Under the pieces are notes generated by a model. It did no database searches and was not told the origin of the DNA. It worked only from the letters and a program-made list of their open reading frames with translations. DNA of 64,000 nt from Escherichia coli (GTDB lineage Bacteria > Pseudomonadota > Gammaproteobacteria > Enterobacterales > Enterobacteriaceae), in NCBI RefSeq assembly GCF_002854065.1, contig NZ_CP024147.1, one strand, 5' to 3'. A program made the translations under genes and the position numbers. This document shows positions 45,029 through 63,009 of this stretch, piece by piece. Positions within the stretch are counted from its first letter, which is position 1. Each line of letters starts with the position of its first letter.

Positions 45029-45395
45029 GTGAAGTGCGGCACCCCGTAGGTTGGATAAAGCGGTCACGCCGCATCCGACATCTAACGCCCGAGCCGGTTG
45101 CCTGATGCGACGCTGACGCGTGTTATCAGGCCTACACCGCTGTGAAGTGCTCCACCCCGTAGGTCGGATAAGGCGGTTACGCCGCATCCGACATCCAACG
45201 TCCGAGCCGGTTGCCTGATGCGACGCTGACGCGTCTTATCAGGCCTACACCGCTGTGAAGTGCGGCACCCCATAGGTTGGATAAGGCGGTTACGCCGCAT
45301 CCGACATCCAACGCCCGAGCCGGTTGCCTGATGCGACGCTGGCGCGTCTTATCAGCATACGCCACATCCGGCATACCATGCCGGATGTGGCACAT
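45029..45395. repeat. BIME/REP array: three tandem 113-bp units plus a terminal perfect hairpin
   Basis: Unit starts at 45029, 45142 and 45255 (period 113), each carrying two REP-like palindromes; followed by perfect 14-bp inverted repeat gccacatccggcat/atgccggatgtggc (45361-45391) abutting the mqo stop. Confidence 0.85.
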
Positions 45396-57141: not shown

Positions 57142-57147
57142 TCATCT

Positions 57148-57462
57148 GTAGGCCAGATAAGACGCGTTAGTGTCTTATCTGGCATTTGCACCGATTGCCG
57201 GATGCGGCGTAAACGCCTTATCCGTCCTACGATTCCCATTATTTCAACAGATTACATTAAAGTAGGCCAGATAAGACGCGTCAGCGTCGCATCTGGCATT
57301 TGCACTGAATGCCAGATGCGGCGTAAACGCCTTATCCGTCCTACGATTCCCATTATTTCAACAGATTACATTAAAGTAGGCCAGATAAGACGCGTCAGCG
57401 TCGCATCTGGCATTTGCACTGAATGCCAGATGCGGCGTAAACGCCTTATCCGTCCTACGAAT
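57148..57462. repeat. BIME/REP array: three tandem 114-bp units between convergent rcsB and rcsC
   Basis: Unit starts at 57148, 57262 and 57376 (period 114), each carrying REP-like palindromes (gccagataagacgcg...cgcatctggc and gccagatgcggcgtaaacgccttatcc); last unit runs into the rcsC stop codon. Confidence 0.85.
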
Positions 57463-60304
57463 CCCGCGATTTCCTGACCCTCTCGGCATATACCGTCAGC
57501 GTCTGTTTTATCACATCCAGCGTTACCGGCTTCGACAGGCAGCTGTCCATACCGGACTCCAGACACCGCTGCTTCTCTTCAGCCAACGCATTAGCAGTTA
57601 CTCCGATTACCGGCAACGTCAGTCCCAACTGACGAATGCGTTGCGTCAAGCGGTAACCATCCATATTTGGCATGTTGACGTCGCTAAGCACGATATCAAT
57701 ATGATTCTTGCTAAGTACATTAAGCGCATCGACGCCATCATTCGCGGTTTTACATTGATAGCCCAACGATCCCAACTGATCTGCCAGCAGACGTCGGTTA
57801 ATCGGATGATCATCCACGACCAGAATCATCATATCGTCATTATCGCTGACCGCTTTGTCCGTCGACGGCAGAGCGTTAGCAGGATCGTCGCTCTCCATCT
57901 CGATCAAATAAATACGCGCCAACAATGCCGGTAGCTCATGCGGAGCAGCCACACTGTGTACCCACTCCCCTGGCGCTTTCTCCAGCGGAATACCAATATG
58001 TCGACGACAGAAGGTCACTACCGCTCTGCCCTGCCATTTTTTACTCACTACCTCGTCAGTGATTAACACATCTTCGGGAGTCGGTTCCTGCCCTTCGTAT
58101 GTTGTAACGACGATGCCGCTGCGCTGCAAACTGGTTTCCAGGAACTGACAGAGCGACGCATTGCGGACCGCCAGCCAGCAGCGTTTACCACTCAGCCCTT
58201 CCACGCCTTTTTTCTGCGGGTACTGAGCGCCGTACAACGGAATACGCACGGTAAACTGGCTGCCCATTCCCGGTTCTGAATCTACCGAGATGTCGCCGTC
58301 CATCATGCTGATCAGTTTTTCACAAATCGCCAGACCCAGACCGGTCCCCTGGAAGTTTCGCTGTACGCCCGTTCCGACCTGGAAGAAGGGATCAAACAAG
58401 CGCACCACTTCTTTCGCCGGAATCCCCACGCCGGTATCGCGAACACGGATAGAGAGATAATCGCCATCAGCGCGGACATGCAAAACTATACAGCCGGTAT
58501 CAGTGAATTTTATGGCGTTACTCAACAGGTTGGAGATGACCTGCTGTAAACGCATCGGGTCGCCATTTAAAGCCACTGGCACATCCGGTTCAATAAAGCA
58601 GTACAAGCCTAACTGCTTGCGTACCACCAGCGGTAAATAGTTGGCGGTGATGTGGTTCATCACTTCACGCGGTGAAAACTCACGCGGTTCGATCTTCAAC
58701 TGTTCCGATTCAATCTTCGAGAAATCGAGAATATCGCTGATAATTTTCAACAACAGGCTGGAAGAGTTGTTCATTGCCGTCACCAGACGATCGACGCCTT
58801 TCGGTAACTCTTTGGTTTGCAACAGATCCAGGTTACCGATAATGCCATACAGCGGCGTTCGCAGCTCATGACTGACGGTGGCAAGGAACATCGATTTTGA
58901 CTGGCTCGCCTGTTCCGCTGCTTGTGCCATCTCCTGCAACGACTCTTCCATCTTCACGCGCGAAGAAACATCCACCAGCACACAAATGGCCACGTTTTCA
59001 TTACGATAGCGCGAATGGACGAAGCTGATTTGCAGATTGGTATTGTTGCTGGTCAGGACATCAACAAAATTGACCTGCTGCCCACAGATAATTTGTGTCA
59101 GCCGTTGGCGGTCCTCATGCGTAAGCATATTGAGATAGGTATGCGCCAGTTCGTTACTTAAAATATTGACGCCATCTGCGGTACGCAAAATACAGATACC
59201 CACTGGCGCGGAGGCGACAATCTTGCGGTTAAACTGCTCATGTTCTTCCAGTCGCAGGGCATCGCTTTCCGCCGGAATGAAAATACGCCGCTCGTACATC
59301 CGCGCGAGAGTAAACAATGCAGCTCCAGCAAGCACATTCAGCAAAATTGCGTTAAGGATCAACATGCGAATGCGTTCCAGCACCTTATCAACCGGCACCG
59401 AATAAACGATGCTTAGCGATGAGGGAGGCAGATTTTTCTTCAGCACCAGCTCCCGGAAACCTTCCGTATAGCCAAACCAGGAGCGTTCCTGCATCCAGCG
59501 AGGATCGCCCTTAATTTTGCTTTCTGGTCCGGTAAGCGAAATCAGGGTATGACCATTTTCATCAAGAATGGTAACCCCCATCGGCAACGTACCCGGTAAG
59601 AAAAAATTCTCCATCCGGATGGTCTGCTCGACACCCAAAAGCGCCTGCAACCTGTTCGCCAGATAAACTGGCGTCAACGCGTAAAAATACCCGACGCCAG
59701 GGCGCGGACCTTCGCTGATCCAGTAGAGGTTACTGCCGCTATCATCTTGTGGTGCATTTCGATATTTATTGATGCGTTCATGCAACGCTTTCAACGCGGT
59801 ATCGCGTTCCACTGGCATATCACGCAGACCGAAATTGGCCATGCAGAGGTTATCGCTGCCGATTAAAAATACCCGGTTGAGATCGTAAGCCGCAGAAAAA
59901 TTATCGCGCCAGTAGCGCATAAACCACGCCAATGACTCCAGAGAACCTCGCCAGGTGTTACTCATTGCGGAACAATCGGAGTCGGCAAACAGCGGTTCAA
60001 ACGCAGGCACATCCGCCTGCGTTTCTCGTCCACGCGGGGAAAGCACACCGTTTTCTGCCGATAAGCGATTTTCAGCGATGTACTTCAGCTCTTTCATCAC
60101 ATCAGAGGTGCGTTGAATAAAGCGCTGAGCCTGATCGGAACTCAGATTAAATTCCTGACGAATTTCCGATTCTCGCTGATGTAACGCATTAACGATGTAA
60201 AAAACGGATGAAAAAGCAATCAACAGCCAGAGCACTAACGCCAATGCTCTGAACATGTAGCGCGAGGCTTTCAGGGTTGTACGAAAAGAAGCAAGGTATT
60301 TCAA
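57455..60304 (-). CDS. rcsC: Hybrid sensor histidine kinase RcsC
   Basis: 949-aa ORF with N-terminal TM/periplasmic domain, HisKA/HATPase core and C-terminal receiver domain. Confidence 0.93.
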   Translation of the reverse strand: MKYLASFRTTLKASRYMFRALALVLWLLIAFSSVFYIVNALHQRESEIRQEFNLSSDQAQRFIQRTSDVMKELKYIAENRLSAENGVLSPRGRETQADVPAFEPLFADSDCSAMSNTWRGSLESLAWFMRYWRDNFSAAYDLNRVFLIGSDNLCMANFGLRDMPVERDTALKALHERINKYRNAPQDDSGSNLYWISEGPRPGVGYFYALTPVYLANRLQALLGVEQTIRMENFFLPGTLPMGVTILDENGHTLISLTGPESKIKGDPRWMQERSWFGYTEGFRELVLKKNLPPSSLSIVYSVPVDKVLERIRMLILNAILLNVLAGAALFTLARMYERRIFIPAESDALRLEEHEQFNRKIVASAPVGICILRTADGVNILSNELAHTYLNMLTHEDRQRLTQIICGQQVNFVDVLTSNNTNLQISFVHSRYRNENVAICVLVDVSSRVKMEESLQEMAQAAEQASQSKSMFLATVSHELRTPLYGIIGNLDLLQTKELPKGVDRLVTAMNNSSSLLLKIISDILDFSKIESEQLKIEPREFSPREVMNHITANYLPLVVRKQLGLYCFIEPDVPVALNGDPMRLQQVISNLLSNAIKFTDTGCIVLHVRADGDYLSIRVRDTGVGIPAKEVVRLFDPFFQVGTGVQRNFQGTGLGLAICEKLISMMDGDISVDSEPGMGSQFTVRIPLYGAQYPQKKGVEGLSGKRCWLAVRNASLCQFLETSLQRSGIVVTTYEGQEPTPEDVLITDEVVSKKWQGRAVVTFCRRHIGIPLEKAPGEWVHSVAAPHELPALLARIYLIEMESDDPANALPSTDKAVSDNDDMMILVVDDHPINRRLLADQLGSLGYQCKTANDGVDALNVLSKNHIDIVLSDVNMPNMDGYRLTQRIRQLGLTLPVIGVTANALAEEKQRCLESGMDSCLSKPVTLDVIKQTLTVYAERVRKSRDS

Positions 60305-60578
60305 AGGGGCGAAGCTCCGCCTCAGGTGACCGATGGAGTGTGGTTAAGGTAGCGGTAAAAGCGTGTTACCGCAATGTTCTGTCACCATTGCAATAATGCG
60401 TATCGCTTAGAAACCATTGCCTTAACCAGGAAAGCCGGAGTAAATGGACAGTTCTCAGTACGAAAAATAAGAAATGACCAATCTGCCGACGCTTGTTAAT
60501 GGTTATATCCTGGCGTCGGCAGATCGCCCAGCAGTCTTATCTGAAAAAAGAAAGAGCCAGGTTGTGTGAAGGGATGGA

Positions 60579-61355
60579 TCACCAGTCAAAACTTTTCACC
60601 AGCGTCAGCTCGCCAGCATTACGCATCGGTACAATAAATTTTTCCTGTTTCTCATTGACCGATCCTTCATCGGTAATCAGCGTCAGTTGGGCGGTGGTTA
60701 ATTCCGTTTCGCTGCGCCCACCATAGTAGTTGATATACACCTGATAGCGCCCGTGAACTGGCGCTGGCATGGCGAAAATCTCGGGTCCGTACCCCGTCGT
60801 GACATCCATATCCAGTGCACCACTGTTTTTCAGCACGGTGTTACCGTACCAGGCGTGTTCGCCATCGGGCGTGACAACATGGAGATCGAGATCGGTATTG
60901 TCCGTATCCCACGAGAGAACCAGCCGTAAACGTGCACGAATCGTTCCTGTACCCGGCGTTGAGTAAAACTGCATTTTTTGTCGGCTTTGCCCATCCGGGC
61001 TGATGACCTGCACGCTGTTGCTGCCTTCAGTGAAAATATAAGGGCGTGCAAATGAACCATCGGATTCAATTCTCTGCGGCATACTGGCACCGTTGACCAC
61101 CAGCCGGCCCTGCTGAGCTTTACCCGCCGCAGCATAATTCTTTATTTTGCCGCGGATCTGCGCTGAGATATTTTGATCATCTGCCATGTTGACGGACGAC
61201 GCCGGGTAATTGATCGATTGTGAAAAACTGGCATCTTCGCCCTCTGCCGGATGCCAGCCTGAGAGCGGTGCGTCAATCTCGACTTCCTGCACACCTTCAC
61301 TGTGAGCGACAGGCGAAAGCGCCACCAGTAACAACAGAAGAAAAATCTTTCGCAT
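60579..61355 (-). CDS. yfaP: Secreted/periplasmic protein of unknown function (DUF2135-like)
   Basis: 258-aa ORF with signal peptide; matches YfaP as recalled; last gene of the yfaS-yfaQ-yfaP string. Confidence 0.8.
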   Translation of the reverse strand: MRKIFLLLLLVALSPVAHSEGVQEVEIDAPLSGWHPAEGEDASFSQSINYPASSVNMADDQNISAQIRGKIKNYAAAGKAQQGRLVVNGASMPQRIESDGSFARPYIFTEGSNSVQVISPDGQSRQKMQFYSTPGTGTIRARLRLVLSWDTDNTDLDLHVVTPDGEHAWYGNTVLKNSGALDMDVTTGYGPEIFAMPAPVHGRYQVYINYYGGRSETELTTAQLTLITDEGSVNEKQEKFIVPMRNAGELTLVKSFDW

Positions 61356-61359
61356 AGCA

Positions 61360-63009
61360 TTAGTCCATTAATAATTGTCGGGTCAGCGTTTCGATATAGT
61401 TCTCATCAAGCCCGGTGGGATAACCATCAAAGGCCAGGTGCAGATACTCATGGGTTAAATCCAGCCGATCCTGAAGCGTAAAGAAGTTACGAATAAACAG
61501 CCGTTTCTGCTGCCGATCGGTATAGGGGAAACCTGAGACTAAACGACAGACCGCAAACACGTCTGGTTCGTTGTACCCCGTCTCGCCTTGTAATATACGC
61601 CGCCACTGCGGCATTTTTTTCGCCAGCCAGGCTTTCGCTTTGGGTAATAACTGACAGGTTGAGCGTGGCGCTCCCCAGCGGCTAAGGCTGTTGTCGGGAT
61701 AAGCAAACGCGAGTATCTGGTCGTAACGCTCTCCCCGCCCCGCCTGGGCCATGGCTTGCCGCCAGGAAAGCGTCCCTTCGGTAGCGCGACTGCCGTGATA
61801 ATGAACCGGATCGCCCGCATAGATGAGATCCTGCGTCCAGGCGGTCATCGTTCGCGCCCCCGTGGTAGCTGGCGAAGCAGAAACACGCTGCGTGGCGCTG
61901 CTGTCGGGGATGGTCAGGCAATCGCCTTCCCGATTGGCGTTTTGCTGTAAAAAAGTGCGAATTGCCACGGTCATGGCTTTCGCTGCCTCAGGGGGCGTAC
62001 TTTTCGCCTCGCGATCCAGAACTCTGGCAACGTACTCTTCACGATCGAGATGCGACTGCAATTTCAGTTTGCCCTTTTCGCTCAGTAAGGTCGTCTCACC
62101 GTGGCTGACAAACGTAATGTGGTTACCATTGGCAAATGTCACACGATAGCGCCCATTAAGTACGCCGGGTTTTACTGACGTCGTACTCTTTTCCGCTGTG
62201 ATTTTCTTCAGCGGATAGCGGGCAAATAGCTCCATCTCTACACATTGCCCACTGGCAACTTGTGTCGGCACTGGCAAAACCCGATTAAGCACCGTCGCAT
62301 AACGGGTCAGTACCGTTTTGCTGGTGCCACTGCCAGTCACCCACAGCGGTGTACCATCGGTTAACCAGCCGGCAAAACCACCCTGACGGATTTCCTGTTT
62401 ATCATCGGCAAACCAGCTCCAGGTTTTCACCCGAACCCGACTACCGAGCATGGATGCGACACCGATTTTCGCCTCGTCCAGCACCACATCCAGTAAGACT
62501 TCCTGAGCTTTGTTTTGCGCAGGTAACGTCGCTAATGAATCAAGCAGCGATTTAACCGTTACCGAGGTTTCTGGCTTCAGCGTAGTAAGAGACGCTAACC
62601 ACGCAGGTGCCTGACGCTGTTGCCAGTATTGCCCCCACACATCTGCGCCAATATGCAACCGCTGCGGCGCAAAATAGAGCCCACAGGAACGTACCAGCGC
62701 GGTATCGCGCGTTATGCTCTCCCCAGCCTGACAACAATAAACCTCTTCCGGGGAGTTTCCGCGACACTGGTAGGGCTGCTCCGGTTGATGGGTATCCTCC
62801 AGCCAGGCGTAAACATACAGTTTCCACAAACTCCCTAACGGCGTGGTGAGCGAGTCAGGTAATGTCGAGGCTTTGGTCACGCCTGATGACGACAGCTGAT
62901 ACAGTTGATCGTGCTGCGCACCACGCAGTGCCAGTTGTAACGGCGTCTCCTCCGCAAGCGTTGGCAGAGTAACCAACGCCAATAGCCAGACGATTCTGCG
63001 CCAGTTCAC
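61360..63009 (-). CDS. yfaQ: Secreted protein of unknown function (DUF2300-like)
   Basis: 549-aa ORF with signal peptide; matches YfaQ as recalled; abuts yfaS stop. Confidence 0.8.
   Translation of the reverse strand: MNWRRIVWLLALVTLPTLAEETPLQLALRGAQHDQLYQLSSSGVTKASTLPDSLTTPLGSLWKLYVYAWLEDTHQPEQPYQCRGNSPEEVYCCQAGESITRDTALVRSCGLYFAPQRLHIGADVWGQYWQQRQAPAWLASLTTLKPETSVTVKSLLDSLATLPAQNKAQEVLLDVVLDEAKIGVASMLGSRVRVKTWSWFADDKQEIRQGGFAGWLTDGTPLWVTGSGTSKTVLTRYATVLNRVLPVPTQVASGQCVEMELFARYPLKKITAEKSTTSVKPGVLNGRYRVTFANGNHITFVSHGETTLLSEKGKLKLQSHLDREEYVARVLDREAKSTPPEAAKAMTVAIRTFLQQNANREGDCLTIPDSSATQRVSASPATTGARTMTAWTQDLIYAGDPVHYHGSRATEGTLSWRQAMAQAGRGERYDQILAFAYPDNSLSRWGAPRSTCQLLPKAKAWLAKKMPQWRRILQGETGYNEPDVFAVCRLVSGFPYTDRQQKRLFIRNFFTLQDRLDLTHEYLHLAFDGYPTGLDENYIETLTRQLLMD

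Follow-up and report, generated by a model that had tools for sequence, protein, structure and literature searches.

The original comparisons between the genomes of Escherichia coli K-12 and O157:H7 reportedly counted the ato genes among the K-12-specific segments ("K-islands" or "K-loops"), and in the annotation of K-12 MG1655 these genes stand in the order rcsC, atoS, atoC, atoD, atoA, atoE, atoB and yfaP. The DNA analyzed here, a stretch of 64,000 nucleotides of E. coli (contig NZ_CP024147.1 of assembly GCF_002854065.1; hereafter, the window), is without the 7.4-kb K-12 segment at this same site, exactly as is O157:H7 Sakai, and its rcsC and yfaP genes are separated by a 274-bp spacer (60305-60578) that holds a perfect inverted repeat. 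Where our comparison departs from the view of a K-12-specific segment is that ato is not a gain of K-12 but an ancestral locus that was lost, with a recognizable stub of atoS remaining. The searchable papers mention ato only as cargo of the LAA (locus of adhesion and autoaggregation) island in Shiga-toxin-producing strains that are LEE (locus of enterocyte effacement) negative (PMC5539235, PMC6174562, PMC9729726), and a literature search by junction, locus tags and sequence returned nothing describing the stub or the hairpin. Template switches that turn imperfect inverted repeats into perfect ones are a documented mutation mechanism in E. coli (PMC7202029), and the surplus of perfect inverted repeats in proteobacteria has been proposed to stem from them (PMC5941160). 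Deletion scars that contain a pseudogene relic are a familiar kind of locus, and this previously undescribed one is unusual in two details, its extreme local divergence and a perfect hairpin formed out of dead coding sequence.

We consider it likely, and with some assurance, that the 274-bp spacer is the scar of an approximately 7.1-kb deletion of ato that left a decayed atoS stub behind, the hairpin being a later product of template switching and at most a weak terminator. The deletion would have extended from about codon 56 of atoS to about 10-20 bp beyond the yfaP stop codon, taking with it the remainder of atoS, atoC, atoDAEB and the bidirectional atoB/yfaP terminator. Three observations characterize the spacer as a scar: the flanking genes are those of the intact locus, the homology to atoS is in order, and the intact state is ancestral. 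Both flanking genes lie on the minus strand, rcsC at 57455-60304 (949 amino acids, with the TTG start of the K-12 annotation; 99.9% amino acid identity to K-12 RcsC) and yfaP at 60579-61355 (258 amino acids; its homologues carry the Pfam domain PF09906, YfaP_C). These open reading frame (ORF) coordinates bear out the 274-bp gap pointed out in the preliminary description, which had also given the K-12 gene order correctly, as judged by the MG1655 annotation; when aligned to K-12, the 274 bp are not contiguous there, the ato locus being absent from the window relative to K-12. The distance between rcsC and yfaP in Sakai is likewise 274 bp.

The limits of the affected segment are sharp. Positions 60000-60380 match K-12 at 380 of 381 sites, the single mismatch falling inside rcsC, so that the rcsC upstream region common to ato-positive genomes (60305-60380) shows no mismatch to its K-12 counterpart (locus L001, 7878-7953); within it, the core GTGGTTAAGGTAGCGGTAAA is conserved out to Citrobacter and Raoultella. 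Homology to K-12 stops at 60380 and restarts at 60578, one base ahead of the yfaP stop codon. The same break point at 60380 was found against three other Escherichia lineages, and in all comparisons homology returned at 60578/60579. Between these points K-12 has 7,413 bp (L001, 7954-15366) comprising atoSC-atoDAEB and the bidirectional terminator, in place of which the window has 197 bp (60381-60577, plus strand), the sole DNA of the gap that is not shared with K-12.

Alignment showed these 197 private base pairs to be what is left, in the original order but badly decayed, of the atoS promoter region and of atoS codons 1-4 and 23-55. Their left part (60381-60473, plus strand), aligned against K-12, other Escherichia and Citrobacter, reads in order as a remnant of the rcsC-atoS spacer, with the atoS promoter and 5' untranslated region, followed by atoS codons 1-5 (approximately 60459-60473). 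Identity in this part was 56-59%, with alignment gaps of 11 nt internally and of 52 nt (atoS codons ~6-22) at the right edge (60473/60474); the alignment score was significant against shuffled sequences for the whole part (P = 0.007) and for neither half alone, and the box GAAACCATTGCCTTAACC matched the sequence upstream of Citrobacter atoS at 87.5-88%. The stub proper (60474-60569, plus strand) opens at the ATG at 60474 and is a 31-codon ORF with its stop codon (MTNLPTLVNGYILASADRPAVLSEKRKSQVV*), corresponding to AtoS residues 23-55 (MVIVPTLTIGYIVETEGRSAVLSEKEKKLSAVV). A BLASTN match of 60486-60553 to codons 27-49 of K-12 atoS reached 78% identity (E = 1.5e-6) in an order that agrees with the flanks, the alignment score of the coding part stood at z = 23 against shuffles, and in the multiple alignment the stub had the same order and orientation as atoS in 13 ato-positive taxa. 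The tail of the relic (60554-60577), compared with the sequences downstream of yfaP in six ato-positive Escherichia loci, would hold the deletion junction, at approximately 60560-60570: GTTGTG resembles atoS codons 54-55, and TGAAGGGATGGA resembles the final bases of the atoB-yfaP spacer (GCGAAGGTAAC...). These matches are short, with 41% identity in the automatic alignment, and the end of the atoB-yfaP spacer nearest yfaP may be the source of the last ~15 nt of the relic. We also observed that base changes abolish the TAA at 60465-60467 in strain E8 and apparently in 23CRST025; in E8, the 41-amino-acid "hypothetical protein" called by the NCBI pipeline (L098, 1564-1689, equivalent to window 60444-60569) is the in-frame atoS stub.

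The direction of the change follows from the genomic neighborhood outside E. coli. The rcsC gene adjoins a divergent atoS in K-12, in "E. coli" E69 (93% nucleotide identity to K-12) and in the lineage of loci L092-L097, as well as in loci retrieved through RcsD proteins labelled E. albertii (with a broken atoS) and E. fergusonii, in at least 17 Citrobacter, in two Atlantibacter and in one Raoultella. In K-12, E69, L093-L095, L105 and L106, rcsC and yfaP bracket the whole of atoSC-atoDAEB. Because this synteny of rcsC and atoS extends to 4-5 other Escherichia lineages, Citrobacter, Atlantibacter and Raoultella, the comparison of gene orders shows ato beside rcsC to be the ancestral arrangement and the window to carry a loss; for the same reason, the idea that ato is an island inserted in K-12 was rejected.

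The distribution of the relic was surveyed in 5,426 complete E. coli genomes. The contiguous rcsC-yfaP arrangement was found in 1,537 of them (~28%), while in the remaining genomes the query split at window positions 60380-60383. At least 80% of the relic was present in 1,536 genomes, in a single copy in nearly all and in two places at most, and it lay between rcsC and yfaP in every locus examined; relic matches were at least 95% identical to one another (at least 97% among the matches listed). The K-12-type atoS 5' end was present in 3,929 genomes, all at 95% identity or more, and no allele intermediate between the relic and the K-12 type occurred in the survey set. The relic haplotype is shown by these counts to be one of two discrete E. 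coli alleles, carried by ~28% of complete genomes, and a look-up of the exact E. coli RcsB protein returned these two haplotypes alone. Among the strains listed, O157:H7, O145, O26:H11, O111:H8 and E. coli W have the arrangement of the window, and K-12, B derivatives, LF82, ATCC 25922, CE10 and NCM3722 are ato positive, a division which we take to correspond to phylogroups E and B1 versus A, B2 and F. The relic of the window is 100% identical to the O157:H7 allele. At yfaQ, however, the window has an intact ORF of 549 amino acids (61360-63009) versus an annotated pseudogene in Sakai (L002, 7561-9210), and so is not Sakai-like there in spite of the identical relic. The 1,541 genomes with the hairpin and the 3,929 with the K-12-type atoS together exceed 5,426, so that at least ~44 genomes hold both. 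A copy of atoSC-atoDAEB is known from LEE-negative Shiga-toxin-producing strains, in which the LAA pathogenicity island carries it (PMC5539235, PMC6174562), and strains without native ato may in some cases have regained it on this mobile island.

The inverted repeat lies within the stub, and consists of a left arm ATCTGCCGACGC (60481-60492; atoS codons 25-28), a 20-nt loop TTGTTAATGGTTATATCCTG (60493-60512; codons 29-35) and a right arm GCGTCGGCAGAT (60513-60524; codons 35/36-39). The preliminary description had recognized a perfect inverted repeat in the gap, but with arms of 11 bp rather than 12, and had placed the motif tctgccgacgc at 60483-60493 with a 19-bp spacer; the motif is indeed present, at 60482-60492, and the spacer is 20 nt. 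Its proposal that the repeat may mark the empty site of an indel is contradicted by the position of the repeat, which is internal to the atoS stub, 40-50 bp to the left of the junction placed at ~60560-60570. Nor is the repeat an ordinary terminator shared with ato-positive genomes, since in the survey it was found only in genomes with the window arrangement (1,541/5,426). It occupies one place per genome in nearly all complete E. coli genomes (two at most), and in the window the motif occurs as its two arms and nowhere else. Perfect inverted repeats of at least 12 bp with a spacer of 3-40 nt occur at 8 places in the window versus 0.23 expected from first-order Markov simulations; the other seven have loops of 3-9 nt and are of the terminator or REP (repetitive extragenic palindromic) type. 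As minus-strand RNA, the hairpin has a folding energy of -25.8 kcal/mol (z = -6.4 relative to shuffles), and its 81-nt context (60455-60535) one of -29.7 kcal/mol (z = -4.6).

Comparison with the orthologues indicates how the repeat could have arisen. Relative to the Escherichia atoS consensus, the left arm is changed at 4 of 12 positions, which equals the background of the relic (29% divergence in the hairpin part), and includes GCCGACGC as in Citrobacter atoS; the loop is changed at 5 of 20. In the right arm, 6 of 12 positions depart from the ato-positive alleles and the arm complements the left one exactly, at a site where all ato-positive taxa from Escherichia to Raoultella have GAAACNGA(A/G)GG(A/C); in context, the ato-positive alleles read ...ATTGGTTATATCGTAGAAACNGA(A/G)GG(A/C)CG... 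and the window reads AATGGTTATATCCTGGCGTCGGCAGATCG. Because the left arm and the loop have changed at the background rate, whereas the right arm has changed at half of its positions and is exactly complementary, our best guess is that the hairpin came from a single quasipalindrome template switch in unconstrained DNA. Such an event would have rewritten the right arm as the complement of an already diverged left arm, after the stub had lost constraint. As expected of a template switch, the derived arm is exactly complementary and the orthologues are imperfect, ~5-7 of 12 positions being complementary by hand count. The outcome is the same as at the E. coli quasipalindrome hot spots studied with thyA and lacZ reporters, in which an imperfect repeat is perfected by simultaneous changes in one arm (PMC7202029); unlike those, the event in the window is reconstructed from orthologues, started from the low complementarity of ~6-7/12 and would have rewritten 6 bases.

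Several observations weigh against the account of a deletion scar with a template-switched hairpin: (i) the homology of the first ~90 bp of the relic, its spacer part, is only weakly significant; (ii) the divergence of the relic greatly exceeds what a recent deletion in E. coli should show, yet its flanks differ from K-12 by only 0.3-3%; (iii) an accidental hairpin would by coincidence stand at the site of a lost terminator and have a U-rich tract downstream; and (iv) the case for template switching draws on one derived sequence with no intermediate allele, and is weakened by a complementarity beforehand of ~6-7/12. Identity of the stub to every atoS allele is 69-72%, compared with 86-90% between K-12 and Citrobacter and 80% between K-12 and Raoultella in the same columns, and the relic is altered in 32 of the 108 columns that show conservation all the way from Escherichia to Raoultella, whereas the divergence of the flanks shows no rise toward it. 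The branch leading to the relic amounts to ~0.36 substitutions per site (Jukes-Cantor corrected), nearly all on the relic side; for comparison, distances from the window at four-fold sites of rcsC are 0.05 for K-12, 0.13 for Escherichia sp. MOD1-EC7003, 0.36-0.50 for other Escherichia and 0.84-1.0 for Citrobacter. Under a neutral clock, such a branch implies an allele older than the sampled Escherichia crown, and it is a possibility of some weight, if short of an even chance, that the relic allele is much older than E. coli, having arisen around the base of the genus or earlier, or else in a sister lineage outside the sampling, and then entered or persisted in E. coli, with both flanks homogenized later by recombination up to the edges of the non-homologous block. 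The branch would correspond to a pairwise neutral distance of ~0.7, above the rcsC values of other Escherichia, and the lack of any intermediate allele in the 5,426 genomes points the same way. The states of the relic at the 15 sites that split all ato-positive Escherichia from Citrobacter divide into 5 of the Escherichia type, 4 of the Citrobacter type and 6 other bases; at least 4 Citrobacter states would arise by chance with P ~0.06, a binomial estimate that assumes a 10% chance match per site, and these sites, although suggestive of an early split of the relic allele, are few and lie in a weakly alignable stretch. The other sampled Escherichia lineages, however, all keep ato or a K-12-like remnant and in none of them is the relic found, the flanks beside it lack excess divergence, and no donor was found: among 79 loci with AtoS relatives in GTDB species representatives, the best match, 77-80% over ~70 bp, did not surpass that of K-12; "E. 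coli" SCPM-O-B-8794 and its relatives (L030, L092-L097), with their divergent ato allele, come no closer to the stub; and the E. albertii- and E. fergusonii-labelled RcsD loci have ato and no relic. The opposite explanation, that the relic is young and owes its divergence to a mutational burst, in which a complex rearrangement during replication or a series of template switches accompanied or followed the deletion, strikes us as rather doubtful. It would suit the sharp steps at 60380/60381 and at the yfaP stop codon, where divergence jumps between 0% and 30-45%, the indels of 11 and 52 nt, among several, within less than 200 bp, the low diversity within the allele (at least 97% identity among the listed matches) and the 23 inverted 6-mer pairs at 60340-60577 versus 5.0 +/- 2.8 in shuffles, of which by our own count 7 come from the main repeat and 16 remain, pairing the relic with its left flank. 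Yet K-12 shares part of this excess, GGTTAAGG/CCTTAACC, which is ancestral, the changes are spread across the relic rather than gathered in a few templated blocks, the transition/transversion ratio is ~1 (hand count on the alignment), and Citrobacter-like states are unexpected from a K-12-like start. The choice between an old allele and a burst leaves the identification of the locus as a scar unchanged.

A second set of explanations concerns the hairpin. The preliminary description had proposed a terminator-like hairpin for yfaP, and this is a weak possibility: the hairpin is stable and has a U-rich tail, but its loop is 20 nt, its U tract is displaced and it was not called by a scan for consensus terminators. 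In K-12, the atoB/yfaP terminator (AAAAACACCCGATA-loop-TATCGGGTGTTTT, with U/A tracts on both sides) is bidirectional; it is absent from the window and is conserved in L093-L095 and E69 with a compensatory A-T to G-C change, which supports a conserved terminator structure. The hairpin of the window resembles it in its stability, in its position just downstream of yfaP on the yfaP-sense strand and in the U-rich sequence that follows; the K-12 terminator differs in that its loop is 8 nt on that strand (4 nt on the other), its U/A runs abut the stem on both sides and its sequence is unrelated, whereas in the window the loop measures 20 nt and the U tract is broken up and set off from the stem. 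That selection built and keeps the hairpin as a replacement terminator or insulator against read-through from yfaA-to-yfaP into rcsC, or as a 3'-end stabilizer, is in our judgment unlikely, if worth keeping in mind. It would be in keeping with the loss of the K-12 terminator from a place where the yfaP operon and rcsC share a strand, with the strength of the minus-strand fold (-25.8 to -29.7 kcal/mol; z of -4.6 to -6.4) followed by UUGGUCAUUUCUUAUUUUU, with the identity of the hairpin in 1,479 of 1,541 genomes, with the finding that 0 of 10 variable relic positions in nine sampled alleles fall within its 44 nt, and with the retention of the original terminator hairpin in the independent ato deletion of MOD1-EC7003; on the yfaP-sense strand, no other strong structure now separates the yfaP operon from rcsC. 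Against this, the stem of 12-14 bp is GC-rich, but the loop of 20 nt (14-18 nt after weak internal pairs) is far beyond the 3-8 nt typical of intrinsic terminators and too long for a short-loop terminator. The minus-strand tail after the stem, UUGGUCAUUUCUUAUUUUU, is U-rich with a GGUCA break beside the stem, so that the U tract is interrupted and starts ~5 nt on, and the consensus scan was silent at the repeat. Stem mismatches occur in 62 of 1,541 genomes, C60514G and G60515A both being seen uncompensated; one strain, SRY206, tolerates an element of the IS3 insertion sequence (IS) family in the loop; and the invariance of the 44 nt is not significant ((153/197)^10 = 0.08). From the folds and this variation, we rate above a selected terminator the reading that the hairpin would be a mostly neutral by-product, at most a weak terminator or 3'-end stabilizer, and dispensable. 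Very improbable, by comparison, is a footprint of a mobile element or recombination site (an IS, a miniature inverted-repeat transposable element [MITE], REP/bacterial interspersed mosaic elements [BIME] or an integron attC-like site) as the cause of the deletion, or ato as an inserted island. The repeat does lie in an indel-polymorphic spacer, and ato genes are found on the mobile LAA island in some Shiga-toxin-producing E. coli (PMC5539235, PMC6174562); but the repeat has one copy per genome nearly always (two places at most) and its two arms stand alone in the 64-kb window, no direct repeats flank it, it lies inside in-order atoS-homologous sequence, it has no likeness to the nearby REP sequences, and the rcsC-atoS synteny across genera means that ato is not an insertion. 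Its identity as a REP/BIME was rejected for want of dispersed copies, of the REP consensus and of an Rfam naRNA4 match in the gap, and an IS or MITE end or excision footprint was rejected because direct repeats and related copies are lacking and the arms lie within atoS-homologous sequence. Finally, a joint proposal would have the relic branch off deeply, before the sampled Escherichia crown, and survive in E. coli or return to it by import as a presence/absence polymorphism of the ato locus, its hairpin being recruited as a makeshift terminator or insulator that shields rcsC from read-through out of the alpha-2-macroglobulin operon (yfaA to yfaP). This appears distinctly improbable; if it were true, the coding sequence of a dead gene would have given rise to a regulatory structure de novo.

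The practical consequence of the deletion is an ordinary one. Strains with the relic (O157:H7, O145, O26, O111, E. coli W and others) are without native AtoSC and without the genes for acetoacetate and short-chain fatty acids, except those with a second ato copy elsewhere, e.g., on the LAA island. The 197-bp block, diverged by 30-45% between flanks diverged by 1-3% at most, would represent either an indel-linked block escaping recombinational homogenization or the record of a mutational burst, and the perfect 12-bp hairpin, made out of what was once atoS coding sequence, is probably a trace that template switching left in a natural population. The sequence upstream of rcsC position -76 and the terminator that formerly isolated rcsC from the yfaP operon are both different in ~28% of E. 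coli, so that expression of the Rcs sensor may differ between haplotypes. Current understanding is unchanged unless the hairpin affects transcripts.

The nearest parallel to the scar is found in Escherichia sp. MOD1-EC7003 (L041), in which ato is likewise gone between rcsC and yfaP and a stub of the atoS 5' end is left. There, however, the deletion runs from atoS codon ~99 to ~120 bp before the end of atoB, the stub is 96-98% identical to K-12 rather than ~70%, the original terminator hairpin is kept, REP elements are inserted by yfaP, and the 12-bp inverted repeat is absent; the deletion in MOD1-EC7003 is independent of that in the window. Its atoB 3' remnant (L041, 10296-10580) is 79% identical to K-12 and 84% identical to the divergent L030 allele. 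Loci L092-L097 belong to one non-coli Escherichia lineage with 91% nucleotide identity to the window in rcsC. In L092, L096 and L097, atoB stands directly before gyrA, and in L093-L095 the alpha-2-macroglobulin genes yfaP-yfaQ-yfaS lie between them, so that the yfaP-yfaQ-yfaS cluster is polymorphic for presence or absence as well; in L096, in addition, atoE is interrupted by an integrase-family (rve) insertion. In L107-L109 (RcsD labelled E. albertii), L092 and L094, atoS is uncalled or fragmented and atoC and atoDAEB are intact, and from these gene calls atoS appears to have undergone repeated pseudogenization in non-coli Escherichia. Two YfaP homologues (P0003 and P0010) come from ato-positive loci in frameshift-rich assemblies. 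Metagenomes scanned for the two arms of the hairpin around any loop sequence (CTGCCGACGC N16-24 GCGTCGGCAG) yielded at least 120 stretches, of which, among the matches listed, only L116 resembles the relic (98.7% over 155 nt); the other listed stretches look like chance palindromes, with no similarity to it.

Further details of the spacer concern its structured elements. The conserved terminator stem (L001, 15301-15336, and the same place in L003 and L093-L095) reads ACACCCGATA/TATCGGGTGT in K-12 and ACGCCCGATA/TATCGGGCGT in L093-L095; E69 has the G-C pair too, plus another change on the loop side. The U-rich tract past the window hairpin on the yfaP-sense strand, UUGGUCAUUUCUUAUUUUUCGUACUGA (60455-60480, minus strand), was delimited from the fold of 60455-60535. 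The terminator scan placed its only terminator-like sites inside rcsC and at 60352-60372 (plus strand), and no promoter was found in the gap, nor did an Rfam scan of the gap return any RNA family at E <= 1. The IS3-family element of E. coli SRY206 (L104, 4027-5430) sits in the hairpin loop with GTTAT on both sides, in the manner of a target duplication. Within 60340-60430, the rcsC-proximal box TGGTTAAGGTAGCGGT and the relic box ACCATTGCCTTAACCA, 56 nt apart, are 81% complementary, and as the pairing of GGTTAAGG with CCTTAACC is also present in K-12, an older inverted repeat spans the rcsC-atoS control region.

The REP/BIME family, including REP325/naRNA4, shares with the window hairpin the character of a GC-rich palindrome in intergenic spacers; the hairpin differs in being essentially single copy, without the REP consensus or an Rfam match. 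Genuine members are close by: the rcsB-rcsC spacer (57142-57454; 313 bp), 3 kb from the hairpin, contains three tandem naRNA4/REP325 units matched by Rfam (57151-57227, 57265-57341 and 57379-57455). The same spacer is 199 bp in K-12 and Sakai and 85 bp in some E. coli (L086 and L088), differences in length that make this a copy-number polymorphism of the REP325 array. Two further naRNA4/REP325 units lie in the window at 45162-45357.

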